From Deltaproteobacteria bacterium (GTDB taxonomy: Bacteria; Desulfobacterota; Syntrophobacteria; BM002): DNA of 64,000 nt. The translations under genes were made by a program, and so were the position numbers. The stretch spans positions 10,967 to 74,966 of the forward strand of contig JAJDNB010000095.1 of the NCBI GenBank assembly GCA_022340905.1, given 5' to 3'. The notes beneath the pieces were generated by a model. That model was not told the origin of the DNA. It did not search any database and saw only the letters and a program-made list of their open reading frames with translations. The first letter of the stretch is position 1; each line of letters opens with the position of its first letter. Shown here one piece after another: positions 1,836 through 62,140 of the stretch.

Positions 1836-2142
1836 CAGAGGAAGTCCTCTTTTCTTACGAGGAAAGTAAAGCCACTGACGGAAGTACTAATCAATATGCA
1901 AGAAGCTTGCCCGACCCACGGAAATCAAAATTCCAAATAACAAATCCCAAATATCAAACAAGCTCCAATGACAGAACCTCGCAATTCCAAACATTTACAT
2001 CTTTTTCAAAGAAAAGCGCATCTGAAATATGTTTTGGTCATTGAATATTGGAATTTTTAATTTACTGGTAATTTGGTGCTTGGGATTTGGGATTTAAGAG
2101 TATCTATCTATATGACTCATCTCCGATGAGTGATCACACCCC

Positions 2143-3858: not shown

Positions 3859-3964
3859 CTTAGATCCTGCATTGAAGACACTAGACACCAAGTCTCGAGG
3901 TGTCAGGTGTCAGGGAGGAGAAACAGAAAAGCTGAAACCTGAACTCTGAAACCTTAGCTTATGT

Positions 3965-7178: not shown

Positions 7179-7568
7179 TTGCGAGATGCCAAAAAAACAG
7201 AAATACTGTTATGGGACAAACACACAACTGAAAGAGAAGTAGTCGAAGAGATGCTCAGAAACCTCGGCTTTAATGTAACAGCCGTTAGTAGCGAGCATGA
7301 CTGTCTCAGAGAATTTTCTAATCGCAAATTTGATCTGGTAATTTTTGATCAAGGTCTGCCAGATCTAGATGTTAGAGAATTTGTTGATGAGTTGGCCGAG
7401 ATAGATCAAATGACACCAATAGCAATGATGGCAACTTTAGCTGTTGAATTCTATGAGAAAAGATTTGGAGGTTCCAATATTGATTTTCTTATAGTTAAGC
7501 CATTCGAGTTGGTTCAGCTTCAGAAGTTGGTTGAAGAAGCTGTGGAACTTGGCGAGCGACTGAAATGA
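7179..7568 (+). CDS. Stand-alone response-regulator receiver domain protein
   Basis: DLVIFDQGLPDLD (phospho-Asp), PIAMMAT (conserved T/S position), FLIVKPF (conserved Lys). No output domain. Confidence 0.6.
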   Translation: MRDAKKTEILLWDKHTTEREVVEEMLRNLGFNVTAVSSEHDCLREFSNRKFDLVIFDQGLPDLDVREFVDELAEIDQMTPIAMMATLAVEFYEKRFGGSNIDFLIVKPFELVQLQKLVEEAVELGERLK

Positions 7569-7630
7569 AGTGGTTAAATCAATGGCGTCAACGATCACCG
7601 TCGAACGGTGAAAAAGGAGGAGGTGAAAAG

Positions 7631-7831
7631 ATGGCTGAAAATGGTGGAGTATATGATAAGGTGGAATCCATCTTGGCAAAACTGTTTGTATTGAGGGATT
7701 CTTGCACGGGTGTTATACATAAAGGAGATTCCCCTTCCAACGCGATCTGGTTTCAGGGAGCTGAGACTATTCTGAAAGAGGCGGTGGATGAGCTTCAAGC
7801 GGCACTCCGCTCCCTAGAGGAGGGTAGTTAA
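7631..7831 (+). CDS. Small conserved hypothetical protein, copy 1 of a tandem triplicated family
   Basis: MAENGGVYDKVESILAKLFVLRDSCTGVIHKGDSPSNAIWFQGAETILKEAVDELQAALRSLEEGS. Start behind AAAGGAGGAGG. Stop overlaps the next start (TAATG). Confidence 0.5.
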   Translation: MAENGGVYDKVESILAKLFVLRDSCTGVIHKGDSPSNAIWFQGAETILKEAVDELQAALRSLEEGS

Positions 7832-8031
7832 TGAGCAATCATGGTGAAGTCTATGACAAAATGGAAAGTATCCTGGCAAAACTAAGCGTCTTAAGAGATT
7901 CTTGCACGGGCGTAATTCATAAAGAAGGGCCGAACTCCAATTTGATCTGGTTTCAGGGCGCCGAGGCCATGTTGCAAGAGGGGGTGGATGAACTCCAAAA
8001 GGCACTTCTTGCTCTGGAGGAGGGTAGTTAA
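7831..8031 (+). CDS. Small conserved hypothetical protein, copy 2 of the tandem family
   Basis: About 65% identical to copy 1 (VYDKMESILAKLSVLRDSCTGVIHKEGPNSNLIWFQGAE...). TAATG overlaps on both sides. Confidence 0.5.
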   Translation: MSNHGEVYDKMESILAKLSVLRDSCTGVIHKEGPNSNLIWFQGAEAMLQEGVDELQKALLALEEGS

Positions 8032-8324
8032 TGGCCAGCCATGGTGTAGTCTACGACAGGGTGGAAGGTATAGTGGCCAAACTTTATGTGCTGAGAGATT
8101 CCTGTACTGGAATAATTCACACGGAGAGATCAAACCCTAATCAGATGTGGTTTCAGGGCGCTGAGACAATCCTACAGGAAGCCGTGGATCAACTTCAGGG
8201 AGTACTTCAAGTTCTGGAAACCGGCGAGGAGGGTGAGCCTGCCATACCAGAGGAGGAAGTGGTAGAAGCCCCGAGCGAGGTGGATGAAGAGGAAGAAGAG
8301 ACTCCAGACGAAGAAACTGAGTGA
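8031..8324 (+). CDS. Small conserved hypothetical protein, copy 3, with acidic Glu-rich C-terminal tail
   Basis: Same core (VYDRVEGIVAKLYVLRDSCTGIIH..WFQGAE..) plus the tail EEGEPAIPEEEVVEAPSEVDEEEEETPDEETE. Confidence 0.5.
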   Translation: MASHGVVYDRVEGIVAKLYVLRDSCTGIIHTERSNPNQMWFQGAETILQEAVDQLQGVLQVLETGEEGEPAIPEEEVVEAPSEVDEEEEETPDEETE

Positions 8325-8377: not shown

Positions 8378-9835
8378 TCAGGTAAGGACATTTAGGATTT
8401 CGGTAACCGCGAGGTTTCCTATGTCTTGCAGCCCTTTCCTTTTCAGCTCGTCTTCACTAAACAGCTCTCTCACGAGTGAGTAGAGACCGGACCTGATAAA
8501 CCCTTCTTCATAGGTCCCAAGCCTGATGCCAAATTCCACTCGCTCTCGATTTGAGGGTGACAGATTTTCAATCACTTCTTTACTAACCCAGATAGTCCCG
8601 CCCTGAGAAAATTCACTGAGCTTTACTGCCTCCACCAAGGTGTCTCCCACCACAGTGAACTCGAACGCCGACGGCGAGGGCATCATTCCCAACCAGTCGC
8701 GTCCACAGTGGATGCCAATGTTGACTCTAAGGGTGTTCTTCCAGGTTTGTTTGCTTTTCCACTCCCGGTCGATCTCGCGTACCATACTTTTCAGAGCACT
8801 GGCGCACAACAAAGACTGAAATAGATGGTCATCTTCCCGGCCTGGCACTTCGAGAAAAAAACAAACACTACCTTCCGTGCAGGATCGGCCGGGTGTCGCA
8901 CCGTGCTCTCTGAAGCACCGGTGCCAACCGAGGATAATCTGATTGATCAGATCAAAGTATGCAGAGGGAGAAAGAGCTGTACGCAGATGAAACTCAGACT
9001 CAAGACTGACGGCAAGGATACACAAGGATGTTGGAGAGGAGGTTTTCCGGAAAAATGTAGGCTTCGGTACCTTCGTCCTTCCAGTGAGTAACTCGAGCAT
9101 CTGACCCAGTTGCATGCTAGCCGGTGGGTATAGCAAGAGAGTCCCTTCCGGCAGGGCCCACGAAAGGAGTGTGTAGTGCTCAGCTCCACCATGGTGATAT
9201 TTTACTGTCAGTGTTTGCCCATCAAATGGCCGAGATGGCGCCATCTCTGTTTCATCCCACAACTGTCTGAGTTGAATTAGCAGGTGGGAGTCCTCATCGC
9301 GGTTTAAAGAAAGGAAGATTTCTGCGCCCACGTCTCTCTTAGCCAATTTCATATGAAACGTGAGGATTTCTTTCCAATTGACAAAGCGATCCTGCAATTT
9401 CTCGATCAAAGAGGGATCCAGAAACCGTCGTCTAACCTGAGACCCAAGCCCTCTGATATTTTCTCCAACCAGCAATTCTTCAGCCACCGAGTTCAGGCCG
9501 ATGATCTCCCAACTTCGGCTGACAAGAATGGCGGGAAATACAATTTGGTCAAGCCATGGGTACATCAGAGGTTCCTCTATAGCTTTCGGAGGCTCCGTAT
9601 CTTCATCCATAAAGTGCATTGCAATTTGAGCCATTCTCATACCTTGGCCTTTAAGTTGCTGTATTTTCTCTATCCGTTCCACAACCCACTCGGGGAAAAA
9701 GCCGATTTTGGTGGGACCACCCGGCTCTTCTGGCGGCCGCACTGATGGAGAAGGAATGAGGTCCATACCAATATAATTGTTGAGTGTAGCCCTGGAAATG
9801 CCAGTACGGGACATTACTTCTTTGCTTGAGATCAT
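8378..9835 (-). CDS. MerR-family HTH regulator fused to a degenerate class III nucleotidyl-cyclase-like (CHD) domain
   Basis: N-terminus MISSKEVMSRTGISRATLNNYI is a MerR HTH. C-terminus RVNIGIHCGRDWLGMM..EFTVVGDTLVEAVKLSEFSQGGTIWVS matches the second half of the cyclase homology domain. In the first half the metal-binding Asp is replaced (ILAVSLESEF). Start is uncertain, either 9835 or 9886. Confidence 0.55.
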   Translation of the reverse strand: MISSKEVMSRTGISRATLNNYIGMDLIPSPSVRPPEEPGGPTKIGFFPEWVVERIEKIQQLKGQGMRMAQIAMHFMDEDTEPPKAIEEPLMYPWLDQIVFPAILVSRSWEIIGLNSVAEELLVGENIRGLGSQVRRRFLDPSLIEKLQDRFVNWKEILTFHMKLAKRDVGAEIFLSLNRDEDSHLLIQLRQLWDETEMAPSRPFDGQTLTVKYHHGGAEHYTLLSWALPEGTLLLYPPASMQLGQMLELLTGRTKVPKPTFFRKTSSPTSLCILAVSLESEFHLRTALSPSAYFDLINQIILGWHRCFREHGATPGRSCTEGSVCFFLEVPGREDDHLFQSLLCASALKSMVREIDREWKSKQTWKNTLRVNIGIHCGRDWLGMMPSPSAFEFTVVGDTLVEAVKLSEFSQGGTIWVSKEVIENLSPSNRERVEFGIRLGTYEEGFIRSGLYSLVRELFSEDELKRKGLQDIGNLAVTEILNVLT

Positions 9836-10484: not shown

Positions 10485-11507
10485 GTGTTATGGTTGTGCG
10501 AGGAAAGGACCAAAGTGCCAGTTAGCCCTGCTAAACACGAGTGGATAAAGGCAAACGAGGAGTCGCTCGTAAAGCAATCCCGCAGTTTTTCCATCCCCAT
10601 TCTCAATCTCGATCAGCGCTTTAGAATCCCAATCATGGTTGAATATAATCTCAACAAAACTATAGATACGATCGAAGACTCAACAGGTTTGGAATCAGAT
10701 GAAAAGATATATCTAATCACCACCTTCTGTGAGCACTTAGAGCGGGATAGCTACTCGTCTGAAATGCACAATCGCATGCTGGAGGTTACCCCTCAAGAGG
10801 AAGCTTTTGTTTTCAAGAATTACCAGGCTACCATAAACTTGTATAAAACCTTAGCTCGTGAAGAAAAGGAGCTGGCACGGAGATGGACTGGCGAAATGGC
10901 CGAAGGAATGTGCACTTTCTTGAAGAAACCTATTTACACCCACCAAGACCTAAATGAGTACTGCTATTATGTAGCCGGTACCGTGGGTCTTTATTTGACG
11001 AATCTCTTGAGGTTAAAAGGCAGTAACATTACGGAAGAAATCTTCGAAAAACTACTGGCTGATGCGGTTTCTTTCGGACGGTTTCAACAGAAACTCAATA
11101 TAATTAGAGACTTTTCAGAAGATAAGACTGCCAAAGGAAGATCCTTTTGGCCCCAGAGCTACTTCGAGAACGCAGATGACAATGTCAAGATCCTAAACAA
11201 AATGTGTTACGACGTTCTCGAAAAAGATATACCAGGAGCAATTGAATATTTTGGCCTGTTGCCACCGGGTAATGACTCGTACGATTATTTTATTCGCTTT
11301 ATCCTTTGCTCGGGAATAGAGTACTGGAGAATTCTCAAAGACCAGGAATCGGTGTTTTCAGAGGCAAAGGTAAAATTGCCGAGAAAATTTGTACAGAACT
11401 TGTACGCCCATGTTTCTTCTCAGACCCGTGAGCAGTTCAAGAATTACTGCCAACAATTCTACGAAGAAGAAATCTCGGCCTGGCCCGAGAACTGGCATGG
11501 GGCATAG
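10485..11507 (+). CDS. Squalene/phytoene synthase family protein (head-to-head isoprenoid synthase, HpnC/HpnD/CrtB-like)
   Basis: YCYYVAGTVGLYL and NIIRDFSEDKTAKGRSFWP match the two conserved SQS/PSY motifs. DTIED is Asp-rich motif 1. Confidence 0.65.
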   Translation: MLWLCEERTKVPVSPAKHEWIKANEESLVKQSRSFSIPILNLDQRFRIPIMVEYNLNKTIDTIEDSTGLESDEKIYLITTFCEHLERDSYSSEMHNRMLEVTPQEEAFVFKNYQATINLYKTLAREEKELARRWTGEMAEGMCTFLKKPIYTHQDLNEYCYYVAGTVGLYLTNLLRLKGSNITEEIFEKLLADAVSFGRFQQKLNIIRDFSEDKTAKGRSFWPQSYFENADDNVKILNKMCYDVLEKDIPGAIEYFGLLPPGNDSYDYFIRFILCSGIEYWRILKDQESVFSEAKVKLPRKFVQNLYAHVSSQTREQFKNYCQQFYEEEISAWPENWHGA

Positions 11508-11570
11508 AGCATAGAGTTTCAGATGTTTGTTTTCACCCCTTGTTTCTTATCCTGAAACCTGAACAATCAA

Positions 11571-11635: not shown

Positions 11636-13624
11636 CTAATCTACCTCACCGGCTTCAACATCCAGAGCCTGACGATCTGCCATATCCATGAGCACGCGCT
11701 CACGCTCACCAATAATACCCAGAGCCTCGCGTTTCTTGTCAATATGGTCGATCACCATGGCGGCCATCTCATAGGGATCGGTGGCAAAACCCCACTTGCC
11801 TAGACCCTGCTTCTCCAACCCGTCAAAGAGCAGCTTGTGAAACTTGGTCTCCGCTATGGTGGGGAAGGTAACGCCAAACACCGTATATATTCCAGAGGCC
11901 ACCACATACTGACCAATGGCTATAGCCTTCTCACTGTACCACTCAGGGGCAACTCCGGCCACCGGCAGATCTGCTATGGTCTCACCCAAACCACCAGTCT
12001 TCACCATCTCAGCACAGGCAACGAGGATCCGGCTGTTGTCCACACAGCTACCCAGTCCCAATACCGGGGGCATGCCTACGGTCTCACAGACCTCCTGCAA
12101 GCCATCACCTGCCAATACCGAGGCATCAGGCTTCATCAACCCGGCCTTGGCCAGAGCTATCTGGGAACAACCAGTCTGCACCACCAAAATGTCGTTTTTG
12201 ATCAGTTCTTTCACCAACTCAACATGCACATAGTCCTGACGCACCCTGGGATTGGTGCAGCCAACCACACCGGCAACTCCCCGAATACGACCATTGATGA
12301 TGTTGTCATTCAAGGGCACATACGATGCCCGGAAGGTACCACCAAGCATGTAGTTGATGTATTCGTGGCTGAAGCCGTGAATCCCCAAAGACTTATTCTG
12401 GGGAATCACTATCTTGGCCTTGCGATTCTTGAATCGCTTGATCGCCTCTTTCACCACCTTGTCCGTGCACTGCCTCGGTTTATGCTCCTCAAACTCAATG
12501 TGCTCCGCACCCTCCATCTTGGCTCGGGGATTGGTGGTGAAAAACTTGGTGCCATAACACTCAGCAAGAGGCGCCAGAGCAGGCATGATACACTGCACAT
12601 CCACTGCCATGGCATCCACTGCACCGGTGATCAAAACCGCCTCGGTGCTCATGAAATTACCCGCATGGGGTATCCCGTGACGACACAATACTTCGGCACC
12701 AGAGCAGCACATGCCCAAAATATTGATGCCTTCGGCTCCCGCTCCCTTAGCCTCTTCCAATAGCTTGGGATCATTTACCGAAGCAATCAAAGACTCAAAC
12801 AGGTTGGGCTCATGACCATTTACAATGATGTTCACCTGCTTCTCATCCAAATAACCCATGTCTACCCCAGCCAAAACCGGAGAGGGCGTGCCAAACAATA
12901 TGTCAGAGATCTCGGTGGCCACCATGGAACCACCCCAACCATCGGCAAGGGCTGTACGACTGCACTGCTTTACCATGTTCTCGTAGTCCTGATCCACTCC
13001 CATGTGGGTCCGGTGCATGATCTCCATGATCTCCCGCATGGCCCCACGGGGAACGATCCCCAGCTCGCGCCACTTGGCCAAGGTCTTGGGCGGTACCCGG
13101 CTGGCAAAGGGAATCTCACCCTCAACCTGAGTGTAGGTACGCTCCAATTCTTTGTAGAGATCCGTGGCTACCTCCTTGACCTCACGACCAGCTGTCTCGA
13201 TACCTAAACCTTCGGCTACATCGAAAAGCTTCTGCTCGTCTTTGATTTTGTAGTCCTTGATCTCACCATTTACCACGCCACGAAACACATCCAGCATGGT
13301 CATGCCGTGGTCCGTGTGGGCCGCAGTACCCGCTGCCACCATCCGGGCAAAGTTCCGCGAGGCGATGGTGTCGATGGTTGCCCCGCATATGCCCGTCTTC
13401 GCATAGGGATCCTTGGAGGACAGCCGGCAGGGACCCATGGAACAGTGCTTACAACAGGCAGAGTCAGCTCCTATGGGACAGGCCTTCATCTCCGCTGCCC
13501 GGTGAAAGGCGGTCTCTACCCCGTCTTCCGCTGCCTTGCGCAACATCTGCTGGGTGGATTTGCAGGTGGTTACCTGCATGATCGGTAGTTCTTTCTTTTT
13601 CTTCTCCTTTACCTCTTCTGCCAT
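11636..13624 (-). CDS. cooS: Anaerobic Ni-dependent carbon monoxide dehydrogenase catalytic subunit
   Basis: 662 aa. N-terminal cluster motif CPIGADSACCKHCSMGPCR with further Cys/His ligands. Homologous to the adjacent Hcp, as expected for the prismane/CODH family. Confidence 0.85.
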   Translation of the reverse strand: MAEEVKEKKKKELPIMQVTTCKSTQQMLRKAAEDGVETAFHRAAEMKACPIGADSACCKHCSMGPCRLSSKDPYAKTGICGATIDTIASRNFARMVAAGTAAHTDHGMTMLDVFRGVVNGEIKDYKIKDEQKLFDVAEGLGIETAGREVKEVATDLYKELERTYTQVEGEIPFASRVPPKTLAKWRELGIVPRGAMREIMEIMHRTHMGVDQDYENMVKQCSRTALADGWGGSMVATEISDILFGTPSPVLAGVDMGYLDEKQVNIIVNGHEPNLFESLIASVNDPKLLEEAKGAGAEGINILGMCCSGAEVLCRHGIPHAGNFMSTEAVLITGAVDAMAVDVQCIMPALAPLAECYGTKFFTTNPRAKMEGAEHIEFEEHKPRQCTDKVVKEAIKRFKNRKAKIVIPQNKSLGIHGFSHEYINYMLGGTFRASYVPLNDNIINGRIRGVAGVVGCTNPRVRQDYVHVELVKELIKNDILVVQTGCSQIALAKAGLMKPDASVLAGDGLQEVCETVGMPPVLGLGSCVDNSRILVACAEMVKTGGLGETIADLPVAGVAPEWYSEKAIAIGQYVVASGIYTVFGVTFPTIAETKFHKLLFDGLEKQGLGKWGFATDPYEMAAMVIDHIDKKREALGIIGERERVLMDMADRQALDVEAGEVD

Positions 13625-15684: not shown

Positions 15685-15782
15685 TTACCCTTGAATGGTT
15701 TAGCGGGAGGGGGTCAACCCCTCTCCCCTACACCCCCCTTTGGAAGGGGATATGAGATTGGAAATTTGGGGTTGCAGGCTTT

Positions 15783-15890
15783 AGGTTTCGGGCGTCAGGT
15801 GTCGGGTTTCGGGAAAAATAAAGTGAAACGCTAAAGGTGAATCCTGAATAGCTTATAGCTAAACACTGAAACCCGAACACTGAAACCTGA
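15783..15890. repeat. Copy of the GGTTTCGGG palindromic repeat between hcp and narG
   Basis: AGGTTTCGGGCGTCAGGTGTCGGGTTTCGGG ... CACTGAAACCCGAACACTGAAACCTGA. Confidence 0.7.
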
Positions 15891-16086
15891 TTCAAGAGGC
15901 AACAGATTCGTGTCCGGTGGAAGCTATCCATTGGGAAGAATAAGACATATCGAAAGACTGAGACAAACTTAGAGCAAAATAAATTCCGCTAATTTACTAG
16001 GATCCCAGGTTAGGCCGAAATAGTTGTCCGGTCAAAAATAAGGGCTGCACAATCGTTGCCCATACCATCAAAAATGGAGGGAAACT

Positions 16087-22558: not shown

Positions 22559-22661
22559 GGCAGGGTTTAGAGATCAAAGGTTTCAGGTGTCAGGTTTCGG
22601 GTGTCAGGATGACAAACAAAGGCTGAAACCTGTAACCTTATCGGGAAGGAGGTGAAGCTCC

Positions 22662-25439: not shown

Positions 25440-25507
25440 AGGTTTCGGGTTTCAGTGTTCCCCGCTGCCGCTTCGCTTCAGACGGGAACACTGACACCCG
25501 AAACCTA
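25440..25507. repeat. Copy of the GGTTTCGGG palindromic repeat forming a 22-bp inverted repeat
   Basis: AGGTTTCGGGTTTCAGTGTTCC ... GGAACACTGACACCCGAAACCT, with 21 of 22 positions complementary, around a 23-nt loop. Lies between the PAS gene and the MetE-like gene. Confidence 0.7.
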
Positions 25508-38341: not shown

Positions 38342-38357
38342 CCTCCGTCCCCCTCCG

Positions 38358-38448
38358 GTTTCAGGTGGCAGGCACTAAGGTTTCGGGTGTCAGGTTTCAG
38401 GTGTCAGAAAAAAAACAAATAATGGCTGAAACCTGAACACTGAAACCT
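38358..38448. repeat. Dispersed intergenic palindromic repeat element (GGTTTCAGGTGTCAGG family), representative copy
   Basis: Left arms GGTTTCAGGTGGCAGG / GGTTTCGGGTGTCAGGTTTCAGGTGTCAG, A-rich spacer AAAAAAAACAAATAATG, right arm GCTGAAACCTGAACACTGAAACC, which is the imperfect reverse complement of the left arms. Other copies are at 3896-3954, 15783-15890, 22578-22637, 25440-25507, 28939-28996, 41340-41390, 41976-41999, 55222-55290 and 58639-58740, with a fragment at 11551-11568. Confidence 0.7.
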
Positions 38449-40341: not shown

Positions 40342-40452
40342 GAGGGCTCTCCTTGTATGACTCTTGGCTTTCCCGTGATCTTAGCAAACCAAGATTTAGG
40401 GAGTATTGGGGTATTGGATTGTGCCCCATCACTCCATTACTCCGTTACTCCA

Positions 40453-41289: not shown

Positions 41290-41447
41290 ATCATTTCAGT
41301 ATGTCAAAGAAGGACTAGAAACTGAGCACCAAGGCTCACGGTGTGAGGTTTCAGGCTTCAGGAAGGAAAAATTATAAAAGCTGAAACCTTAGTCTTCCCT
41401 CTATGCTCTATGCTCTATGCCCTCTGCGAGGGGCGAAGCCCCTCTAG

Positions 41448-41864: not shown

Positions 41865-42000
41865 AGCCTAGTGAAATATCCCAAGATAAAATCATACAAC
41901 GGCTAAAAGGCGGTGGTCAACAAAGAGTGAAGATATCCGATAAAAGTTCGCGGAGCGCAAAGCACATAGCGAAAAAGCTGAAACCTGACACCGGAAACCT

Positions 42001-47035: not shown

Positions 47036-47041
47036 CCATCG

Positions 47042-47062
47042 AGCATAGAGCATAGGGCATAG
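47042..47062. repeat. CATAGAGCATAGGGCATAGAG short dispersed repeat
   Basis: The same 21-mer recurs at 62043-62063, as a reverse complement at 41400-41420, and truncated at 11505-11518 and 42388-42398. Always intergenic, immediately after a stop codon. Confidence 0.6.
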
Positions 47063-47225
47063 AGAAATACAGCTGCCAGCGAGTCAAATGGTCAAATTGT
47101 CGATCGGTCAAATGGGAAATTAGGCAAATCGTTAATTCGTCACTGAGGCCATTTCACAACCATTTGACTATTCGACAAATTGACTAATTAACCTATTGGG
47201 CTGCGCGATGAGAGAGGAGAGATAG

Positions 47226-54970: not shown

Positions 54971-55305
54971 ACAGAAGAGTTTTCCATTTAGCAAGCTTGT
55001 TCTGCCAGCATATCAACAGTCAGATAGAAATTTTCTGAGATGGATAAAGAAAATATCCGAGTTGAATGAAGGCTTCTCGAATTGTTATGATCATGGGGAT
55101 GGGATGTAAAACCCTAATTTATTGGGGACAGCCAGGTGATGTTCTAATGAAAGATTCAGACCATTAGGTACGTGCCATTAAGCTTCCCCAAAAGGGTAAT
55201 CTCCTGTCCTTCCTTCAATCTAGGTGTCAGGTTTCAGATGTCAGGGAAAAAAATACGATGGCTGAAAACTGAAACCTGAACACTGAAACCTTAGTCAATG
55301 AGGAG

Positions 55306-56133: not shown

Positions 56134-56397
56134 TCGACATTCCTTAAGTCATCTATCTCTCCCCTCTCATCGCATAGTGCAAAGCGCATGGCGCACAGTG
56201 TTTCTTGGTCAATTAGGCAAATAGTCGATTGGTCAAATTGTCTAATCGTAAACGGGAAACCGCGTTTCACATCCCACATCTCAAATCCGAAATCCGCAAT
56301 CCGAAATCCCAAATACTGAATCTCTTTCTTGTCTTTTTCTTCCTGAGTGTTTAATAAATCATAAAGGAGTAACTGCGGTCAACGTTAGGAGGTAAAA

Positions 56398-58568: not shown

Positions 58569-58742
58569 CTTAATGTAAGTGCTCTTGAACGTGAAAGCAA
58601 GACAAGATAAGAGGCTCTTCTGAAAATAAGGTTCCAGTTTTCAGGGGTTACTCAGGTACCAGATGTCAGGTTTCAGGAAAAATAAACAAAAATGCTAAAC
58701 TAAAATTTTGAATAGTTATGCCTGAAACTCAAACCTGGAATC

Positions 58743-61882: not shown

Positions 61883-61991
61883 TTTTATCACCTCAATTCA
61901 AGGCTGTCCCTGACCTCAAAATTTCCCAGCTGGAAGCGCGTACATACTCACGCTTTCCTAGTGGTGCCGGCTGATTTTTCTCACTAGACAA

Positions 61992-62008
61992 TTGCAAATG
62001 GTGTGCCC
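61992..62008 (-). promoter_or_regulatory. Sigma-54-type -24/-12 promoter candidate upstream of the Cys-rich small ORF
   Basis: Minus strand reads GGGCAC-ACCAT-TTGCA versus consensus TGGCAC-N5-TTGCW, with GG/GC spacing correct and one mismatch. No enhancer-binding protein lies in the window. Confidence 0.3.
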
Positions 62009-62140
62009 AAGGTGAGGATTCATGATTGAAGATTTCAAAAGGCATAGAGCATAGGGCATAGAGTCCGATGACAGACGACGGAGGGCAGAAGGCGGAGGAC
62101 AGATTTCGGATTCAGGATTTCTTATTGTGGCTTGAGTATT

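Follow-up and report, generated by a model that had tools for sequence, protein, structure and literature searches.

The 64-kb stretch of Deltaproteobacteria bacterium DNA analysed here (64,000 nucleotides of contig JAJDNB010000095.1, hereafter the window) carries a family of small hairpins whose arms are tandem arrays of the heptamer GGTKTCA; one of them, the copy at positions 38357-38448 (E6), had been flagged in an earlier sequence-only reading. We suggest that these hairpins are probably gene-less miniature derivatives of a selfish cassette, similar to the intervening sequences (IVS) of 23S rRNA, which carries a single gene of the TIGR02436/PF05635 family (S23p, Avd-like). The analysis supports the view that the GGTKTCA family behaves like non-autonomous mobile DNA, being dispersed, non-coding, hairpin-forming and intergenic, and we regard its members as non-coding selfish hairpins and not as terminators or regulators of demonstrated function.

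Heptamer arrays flank genes for four-helix-bundle proteins

Relatives syntenic with the window were obtained through NarI (L122-L129, 76-84% identity) and through YchF (L144-L148), where L numbers designate loci or contigs from other genomes. In L144 and L145 (87% YchF identity, syntenic) a 120-codon PF05635 gene is located between the Usp and amidohydrolase genes and is bracketed exactly by AGGTTTCAGGTGTCGGG and CCTGAAACCTGAAACCTGACACCTGAAACCT; the orthologous junction in the window is empty, with a 24-nt spacer. A protein search with the L144 gene returned >1900 clusters, ~80-86% identical over the first ~90 residues and located mostly on short contigs. Three cassette clusters were picked by contig number and length, blind to the DNA, and each has GGTKTCA arms (22 nt and 95% complementary in L242, 33 nt and 85% in L252, 33 nt and 94% in L256) and lies between co-directional operon genes (FabA-like and TP_0789-like, MacB/FtsX and OEP, AMP-binding and ECH, respectively). 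GGTKTCA/TGAMACC arrays therefore flank 4/4 sampled genes of the L144 protein type. The full cassettes measure 400-700 bp and consist of an inverted-repeat stem enclosing one PF05635/TIGR02436 open reading frame (ORF). A 3' arm with at least three TGAMACC units (as at window positions 38426-38448) presents TGA in all three frames, and a 5' arm in none; the cassette ORFs of L144 (2540-2580) and L242 (2455-2498) read into the 3' arm and end there. The window copies have no internal ORF, and can thus only be derivatives and not full members of the cassette class. Their loop (ATAAGAAACAAAGG) shows some resemblance to the leader that follows the 5' arm of the L144 cassette (GATAAGACAGTGACAAAGAAG), a similarity that we regard as weak.

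The association extends beyond this protein type. All of the above cassette proteins score against the TIGR02436 model ("four helix bundle protein"), and PF05635 proteins are homologues of Avd, the accessory protein of diversity-generating retroelements (DGR). In a metagenome-assembled genome (MAG) of Pirellulaceae (L073), GGTTTCA/GACTTCA arrays enclose a canonical TIGR02436 gene, whose product also touches the DGR Avd model. While a tblastn search of plasmids with P0209, a homologue of the L144 cassette protein, gave no match, the L073 protein matched 27 plasmids, 24 of them cyanobacterial (mainly Nostoc and Calothrix), with others including Gemmatirosa and Azospirillum. Nostoc and Calothrix are classic taxa of the short tandemly repeated repetitive (STRR) sequences, the cyanobacterial heptamer repeats reportedly described by Mazel and colleagues in 1990. 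Sixteen plasmid TIGR02436 loci were examined, and in 13 the gene was flanked on either side by tandem hepta- or octamer arrays in inverted orientation. The exceptions were a Pseudanabaena cassette with direct arrays (AAAGCTA x15 upstream, AAAGCCA x10 downstream) and two Nostoc 7120 copies, which retain the 3' array and have the end of an ISL3 gene on the 5' side. The plasmid units differ per protein subfamily (TCAGGAG, AGGGTGT, TTAGCTG, AGGCAGA, AGGGAGT, AGGTGAC, AAAAGGG, GGGAAAA, GAGGACA). In the metagenomes and plasmids together, 21/21 sampled four-helix-bundle genes adjoin tandem hepta- or octamer arrays. By one automated test, inverted arrays flank 18/21 of these genes against 2/105 controls, the latter comprising 0/63 window genes and, from the first 50 kb of N. 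punctiforme pNPUN01, 2/42 genes (one is the cassette gene, the other adjoins it).

Some of the plasmid cassettes (loci L265, L271, L275, L270) interrupt operons. Three lie in CRISPR-Cas operons, between cas6 and cas4 (Pseudanabaena, Anabaena sp. 90) and between cmr2 and cmr3 (Picosynechococcus), and one separates the ribonucleotide reductase subunit genes nrdB and nrdA (Nostoc edaphicum). Relative to the gene encoding WP_104899637.1, the four-helix-bundle gene is upstream in one and downstream in the other of L272 (Nostoc sp. C052) and L276 (Nostoc sp. ATCC 53789). These opposite sides, together with differing arm units (TCAGGAG vs GGGAAAA), indicate independent insertions into one operon. Two further repeat families of the window recur elsewhere as cassette arms, CTCCTGA (28965-29006) and GAnGACA (33054-33103); the CTCCTGA unit, which forms part of element E5, is the reverse complement of TCAGGAG, the arm unit of four-helix-bundle cassettes in Nostoc and Aulosira.

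Abundance and anatomy of the elements in the window

Matches to GGTTTCRGGYGTCAGG with up to 2 mismatches number 14 in the window, against 0.12 expected and a maximum of 2 in dinucleotide-preserving shuffles. Clustering of heptamer matches and reading of every intergenic region defined 11 loci (Table 1): nine hairpin elements (E1-E9), a solo arm (E10) and a degenerate copy of opposite polarity (E11). The sequence-only reading had reported an abundant intergenic family of at least ten copies, which these counts bear out. Its estimate that nearly every third intergenic region carries a copy was too high, as the GGTKTCA family occurs in 11/51, or about one in five. All 11 loci are intergenic, although intergenic DNA makes up only 17.1% of the window (chance ~4e-9), and the copies range from 3.9 to 58.7 kb, scattered among unrelated operons.

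Table 1. GGTKTCA-family elements in the 64-kb window (positions are those of the window; z, folding relative to shuffled sequence)
Element	Position	Strand	Features
E1	3898..3954	+	5' arm AGGTGTCAGGTGTCAGG, loop GAGGAGAAACAGAAAAG, 3' arm CTGAAACCTGAACTCTGAAACCT; fold z = -2.4
E2	15777..15888	+	Five-heptamer 5' arm, 45-nt loop, four-heptamer 3' arm; between hcp and narG; z = -4.5
E3	22578..22638	+	Four-heptamer 5' arm, loop ATGACAAACAAAGG, short 3' arm; between narI and MFS (NarK-like) gene
E4	25440..25506	.	GGTTTCG/GGTTTCA arms around nested 37-nt hairpin module (25455-25491, GTGTTCCCCGCTGCCGCTTCGCTTCAGACGGGAACAC); after PAS gene
E5	28939..29006	+	Chimeric: GGTKTCA-type 5' arm (28939-28955) opposite CTCCTGA-type heptamer array (28965-29006)
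E6 (flagged copy)	38357..38448	+	Outer partial 5' arm 38357-38372; four-heptamer 5' arm 38378-38407; A-rich loop; 3' arm CTGAAACCTGAACACTGAAACCT 38426-38448
E7	41346..41389	+	Short copy: 5' arm AGGTTTCAGGCTTCAGG, A-rich loop, single 3' heptamer; followed by CTCTATG x3 (41399-41420)
E8	55222..55291	+	Three-heptamer 5' arm, A-rich loop, four-heptamer 3' arm; z = -4.5 on both strands
E9	58660..58738	+	Degenerate: GATGTCAGGTTTCAGG, A-rich 43-nt loop, CCTGAAACTCAAACCTGG; z = -2.3
E10	41978..42000	.	Solo 3'-type arm (CTGAAACCTGACACCGGAAACCT); partnerless within its own intergenic region
E11	11516..11568	-	Degenerate, opposite polarity; minus-strand loop ATAAGAAACAAGGGG matches loop of L122 copy

The elements are built from (GGTKTCA)n arrays opposite (TGAMACC)n arrays with an A-rich spacer between them. 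The basic unit is a tandem heptamer, frequently alternating as a 14-mer, and period 7 predominates among the tandem repeats of the window (Tandem Repeats Finder and our own periodicity scan). A typical copy has 2-5 heptamers in its 5' arm (GGTGTCA, GGTTTCA and forms with a final G); GG follows, and after it come an A-rich loop of ~14-20 nt and a 3' arm of TGAAACC/TGAACAC. In E6 the letters read GGTTTCAGGTGGCAGG cactaa GGTTTCGGGTGTCAGGTTTCAGGTGTCAG aaaaaaaacaaataatgg CTGAAACCTGAACACTGAAACC; its fold reaches -34.4 kcal/mol (z = -4.6), and the same element is present in a 99.4% identical metagenome contig (L001) with only 2 single-nucleotide differences. Every window copy is more stably folded than shuffled sequence, whichever strand is taken (z between -2.3 and -10.8), and E4 is the strongest (-46 to -49 kcal/mol, z = -9.6 and -10.8).

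The arms are not equivalent. When 39 elements from the window and other loci were oriented solely by loop composition, the 5' arms contained 44 GGTGTCA, 33 GGTTTCA and only 2-3 GTGTTCA units, whereas the 3' arms, read as the reverse complement, contained 53 GGTTTCA, 24 GTGTTCA and 14 GGTGTCA (Fisher p = 7e-6), and the stem contains a conserved internal mismatch block. Since this asymmetry is conserved across genomes, the element is polar and not a true palindrome. The sequence-only reading had taken the two arms to be near-reverse-complementary; the 3' arm, which combines TGAAACC with TGAACAC (reverse complement GTGTTCA), is not simply the GGTGTCA/GGTTTCA 5' arm in reverse complement. L011 and L126 have the identical loop (~AAAAAGAAACATAGAAG) at unrelated sites, and nearly the same loop is found in L037, L103 and L127.

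The polarity of the elements shows no relation to transcription, as 7 are in sense and 9 in antisense orientation, 5 lie between convergent and 3 between divergent genes; the balance of sense and antisense copies makes a strand-specific role in RNA unlikely. Copies had been described as following stop codons, the MBL-fold and ROK genes among the examples. Both of these genes are on the minus strand and have the element upstream of their start, E1 lying between the NUDIX stop and the beta-CASP/MBL start and E6 between the PilZ stop and the ROK start (all four genes on the minus strand), so that the copies do follow stop codons there, those of NUDIX and PilZ. E8 is placed between convergent genes and ends right against the stop codon of an ORF on the minus strand, while E10 and the 5' arm of E7 together flank the tRNA-Thr-ED gene. 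A strand or replication bias was also considered: the seven canonical copies share one polarity, but with 7/9 overall the bias is not significant (p = 0.18). The window copies that score as opposite in polarity are E11 and E4, the latter by loop composition only; at other loci both polarities occur, and GC skew merely tracks gene direction.

Distribution and turnover

A pattern scan of 185,579 species genomes yielded at least 120 stretches. Among the matches listed, arrays of at least three heptamers were present in 46/53 from Desulfobacterota or "delta" MAGs (often on several contigs per MAG), 8/15 from Acidobacteriota, 10/17 from the Planctomycetes-Verrucomicrobia-Chlamydiae (PVC) group, and 3/27 from other taxa, where most matches were chance 16-mers. 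In the IMG/VR database the 93 pattern matches are close to the number estimated for chance, yet 26 of them have real arrays; host-derived sequence, prophage and mis-called contigs all fit this ambiguous result. Six predicted viral contigs of IMG/VR (L155, L168, L170, L214, L216, L217) have several GGTKTCA-type arrays each, as complete hairpins or as single arrays just upstream of ORFs. Metagenome contigs often terminate inside or beside an element (L001, L123, L032, L013, L101), which fits a multi-copy repeat breaking short-read assemblies.

The family is thus not restricted to the window, the same element and loop being found on several contigs of many Desulfobacterota MAGs. Their occurrence at unrelated sites, on several contigs per MAG, together with the turnover of sites described below, rules against a local duplication, and a loop shared across sites and genomes suggests that the miniature form itself has multiplied, as opposed to each copy decaying independently.

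Comparison of syntenic relatives revealed filled and empty sites. Five lineages carry an element between narI and narK: the window, with four 5' heptamers; L122, with two; L123; L126, in which the loop is inverted; and L127-129, in which a 50-nt insert is nested. The site is empty in L125 and L124. The site after the PAS gene has four different occupants: a GGTKTCA element with a nested hairpin in the window, GAGCATA/CTACTGA arrays in L122, a 165-bp CAAATCA-type element in L125/L126, and a GGTKTCA element of opposite polarity in L127. A hairpin of 165 bp with CAAATCA/TTGGGAT-type heptamer arms, ~80% identical to the post-PAS element of L125/L126, is also found at window positions 1925-2095, a non-orthologous place, and this provides independent evidence that heptamer-armed elements move. 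The site between hcp and narG is filled in the window only, with no element there in L124, L125 and L127. It was here that a copy had been placed 15 bp before the ribosome-binding site of a ferredoxin gene: E2 does adjoin this sequence, but the "ferredoxin" is a truncated remnant (15890-15943) comprising the last 17 codons (IQEATDSCPVEAIHWEE, then stop). The full ORF is intact in L125, and in the window it is broken where E2 has its 3' end, which abuts the remnant; L124 is similarly truncated without an element.

In L124, whose NarI is 82% identical to that of the window, 13.5 kb contain no period-7 array, compared with 4-17 in comparable lengths of its sisters, which points to a lineage-specific cause rather than generic slippage. 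The array trait looks like one that individual lineages turn on or off.

A 37-nt GC-rich module (GTGTTCC-CCGCTGCCGCTTCGCTTCAGACGG-GGAACAC) was seen nested in three GGTKTCA elements, each at an unrelated site and in a different genome (window 25455-25491, L127 ~9560-9610, L144 ~12240-12280), and looks like a very small element inserting into a TGAACAC heptamer.

Proposed origin of the miniature elements

We propose that the 55-110-bp copies arose from full cassettes through loss of the ORF and may then have multiplied as non-autonomous elements, with the necessary function supplied in trans. When transcribed within operons, the arms would pair into an imperfect stem of 15-30 bp, a putative substrate of RNase III as in the 23S-rRNA IVS of Coxiella and Leptospira. 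By this analogy, RNase III processing would render an insertion between cistrons tolerable, and the main effect of an element would be mRNA processing and end-capping, not termination. Heptamer number would drift via slippage, and loops could flip via recombination between the arms.

The model is the Coxiella 23S IVS, a 428-444-nt unit with a 28-bp terminal stem and an S23p ORF, which has been called selfish and is excised by RNase III, as are the IVS of Leptospira and Salmonella (PMC4990558). The full-length relatives of the window elements are alike in size (400-700 bp), in their long inverted-repeat stem and in their one PF05635/TIGR02436 ORF. They differ in that they lie between protein-coding genes and not in 23S rRNA, and the window copies have no ORF. 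The stems of the window copies are tandem heptamer arrays.

Several observations weigh against this derivation. Its basis is that the arms and the insertion contexts are shared and that loop and leader are weakly similar, and RNase III processing of the stem is put forward by analogy. Neither a TIGR02436/PF05635 gene nor a full cassette is present in the 64-kb window, and no target-site duplication, transposase or reverse transcriptase was found near the elements. The L073 protein is only ~25% identical to the L144 type and yet has similar GGTTTCA arms; the Pirellulaceae case implies that arms and gene are not strictly co-inherited, and that the arrays could arise convergently. Between strain pairs 99.4-99.9% identical, no array indels were seen over 6-13 kb, which means that the arrays are stable over short timescales. 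Finally, some copies have been kept at orthologous sites over ~25% nucleotide divergence, and such long persistence fits very slow movement or retention by the host as well as it fits mobility.

Alternative explanations

The sequence-only reading had likened the elements to REP or MITE sequences. Their mobile-like behaviour agrees with this, but membership of either family is not supported, as there is no cognate transposase gene, palindrome of the repetitive extragenic palindromic (REP) type, target-site duplication or parental insertion sequence (IS) in the material examined. The REP alternative would have the elements be REPINs, pairs of REP sequences forming a hairpin, moved by a single-copy REP-associated tyrosine transposase (RAYT, a Y1 HUH enzyme) encoded elsewhere in the genome. 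REPINs have two inverted conserved ends around a short spacer, fold into hairpins, are extragenic and abundant, lack target-site duplications, persist for long at orthologous sites and leave solo arms as apparent remnants (PMC3116915), all of which is matched here (compare E10), and an imperfect polar stem is the type of feature that HUH enzymes read. Each arm, however, is a tandem heptamer array without an internal palindrome, whereas REP palindromes have a conserved 5' tetranucleotide. A search of the window and of the 143 ORFs flanking arrays in 120 genome loci detected no Y1 transposase, although RAYTs are single-copy genes; the gene partner bracketed by the arms is instead one for a four-helix-bundle protein. 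We therefore consider a RAYT-driven origin unlikely.

It is likewise improbable that the arrays are ordinary long simple sequence repeats (SSRs) formed in place by polymerase slippage, with quasi-palindrome template switching keeping the arms alike, and with neither mobility nor a link to a gene. Heptamer repeats have been known in cyanobacteria since ~1990. In many bacteria no long SSR class is more common than the heptanucleotides, and a proposed cause is slippage tied to the 7-nt footprint of the polymerase (Mrazek 2007, per PMC4679880, PMC4692102), with origin and function stated to be open. Reported examples include TAACTGA repeats in Beggiatoaceae, cyanobacteria and Bacteroidetes (PMC4679880), GGGAATC repeats with 70-75 convergent (inverted) pairs in Xanthomonas, and GGGGAYT repeats in Nostoc (PMC4692102). 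Like these, the window arrays are tandem heptamers of intergenic DNA, with many families of units in each genome and a patchy phylogenetic distribution, and slippage would account for the many distinct units in one genome and for the differing number of units in orthologous copies (2 vs 4 heptamers). It would not account for a non-repetitive loop and an arm asymmetry conserved at non-orthologous sites in different genomes, for the array-free L124, or for the tight association with one gene family, and the absence of length variation between nearly identical strains speaks against it as well; fast slippage, or phase variation, was rejected on that same absence. Earlier reports treated heptanucleotide repeats as simple sequence, G-quadruplex or regulatory motifs, and the link to a gene cassette is put forward by the present analysis; the Beggiatoaceae (PMC4679880) and Xanthomonas (PMC4692102) papers make no mention of S23p or four-helix-bundle genes. 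Exact GGTKTCA 14-mers were not found in searchable literature text, where the unit, the fixed loop and the polarity are likewise undescribed, and a literature search on bare heptamers returned only primer noise.

A further possibility is that the elements benefit the host, the paired arrays binding a nucleoid-associated or global regulator. This is how arrays of 3-5 tandem units in Geobacter metallireducens, which occur as opposite-strand pairs at variable distance in dozens of copies, have been read (as IHF/HU sites; Aklujkar et al. 2009, classes 1-3, PMC2700814). The architecture is the same, the CTCCTGA-type arm at window positions 28965-29006 agrees with the class 3 unit, MTYCTGA, and in both systems ISs insert beside arrays; the dominant unit in the window is different, and gene cargo was not reported in G. 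metallireducens. In its favour, too, the arm sequence is conserved beyond the needs of hairpin formation alone. Against it, the 143 ORFs adjoining arrays fall into 211 Pfam families, none with >4 members, with no functional theme. One and the same site has different occupants among relatives, and elements are found in convergent, divergent and co-directional contexts and in either orientation, which leaves this explanation with little probability. Resemblances to the Cra/FruR operator, the parS half-site, matS, CsrA GGA motifs, G-quadruplexes and DNA uptake sequences were dropped, as there was no real match or the feature was not common to the other heptamer families.

About as poor a candidate is a classical MITE (miniature inverted-repeat transposable element) with terminal inverted repeats, derived from and moved by a DDE-type IS. 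Like the MITEs Nezha, Correia and Chunjie, the window elements are small and non-autonomous, with inverted ends, long hairpins, and filled and empty sites in relatives (PMC3184786); assemblies break at copies (L001, L123, L032, L013), and ISs stand beside some arrays (ISL3 in Nostoc 7120, ISGme8/9 in G. metallireducens). MITEs, however, have target-site duplications and share their ends with a transposase-bearing IS, and the window elements do neither. No target-site duplication was found in 37 copies, whose flanks show only an A at -1 and a T at +1, that is, the heptamer register continuing, with no direct repeat. Arm length is variable, no transposase was found among the ~60 ORFs examined in the window, none is enriched among the neighbours of arrays in the other genomes, and the ISs look inserted into arrays and not parental to them.

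That the elements are primarily intrinsic (Rho-independent) terminators, a role suggested by the sequence-only reading and by the stable hairpins downstream of stop codons, can be dismissed almost entirely, as no T-run follows the stems, a terminator scan calls none of the elements, E5 directly follows a genuine terminator-like hairpin downstream of the octahaem cytochrome gene, several copies sit inside operons 15-40 nt before the next start codon, and both orientations occur.

Other arrays and gene content of the window

Some heptamer or octamer array is present in ~20/51 intergenic regions of the window. Besides the GGTKTCA family, arrays were noted at 33040-33240, 40342-40452, 47036-47225, 56134-56397, 61975-62140, 41399-41420 and 11502-11516, with units GAnGACA, CATAGAG/CGCTATG, ATCCCAA and the octamers GTCAAATK, ACTAATTN and GTAATGGA, some of them nested concentrically. 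Concentric hairpins are also seen in Desulfobacterales MAGs (L014 5217-5367, L074 196-333, L119 2334-2595), with GAnGACA arms on the inside and GGTKTCA arms on the outside, which gives the appearance of an element inserted in another's loop.

The genes of the window include two hybrid-cluster proteins, narGHJI, a major facilitator superfamily (MFS) transporter, NapC/NirT and octahaem cytochromes, methylmalonyl-CoA mutase, a carboxyltransferase, YchF, EF-P and other housekeeping genes. By YchF, the nearest named relatives are "Deltaproteobacteria bacterium" MAGs (79%) and Syntrophobacteria (66-73%), which places the host in an uncultured lineage of Desulfobacterota. Rfam 15 at gathering threshold gave no match across the whole window, nor did a tRNA/tmRNA scan. 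Three consecutive small ORFs at 7565-8324 (88, 66 and 97 aa) correspond to a 200-bp unit repeated 2.2 times at 73% identity, and form tandem diverged paralogous mini-genes adjoining a response-regulator gene.

Wider significance

A broader reading is possible, although we hold it with considerable doubt. Heptamer arrays at large (cyanobacterial STRRs, the GGGAATC pairs of Xanthomonas, the paired arrays of Geobacter and the GGTKTCA family) might be the terminal repeats, or footprints, of one hitherto unrecognised class of mobile cassette. The sole gene of such a cassette would encode an Avd-like protein which, alone or with a reverse transcriptase (as Avd does in DGRs), recognises the arrays and causes the unit bounded by the stem to be copied; the IVS of 23S rRNA would then be a special case that landed in rRNA.

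If the link between arrays and four-helix-bundle genes holds genome-wide, it would unify STRR-type repeats, the "global regulator sites" of Geobacter and the rRNA IVS as one kind of selfish element. It would also provide a candidate role for the uncharacterised stand-alone homologues of Avd, account for the tolerance of these hairpins within operons (cas, cmr, nrd and nar among them), and point to a systematic source of broken assemblies and of spurious small ORFs in metagenomes. The connection to one small gene family (TIGR02436, S23p, Avd-like) may shed some light on the 7-base repeats that have long been a puzzle in cyanobacteria and other bacteria.

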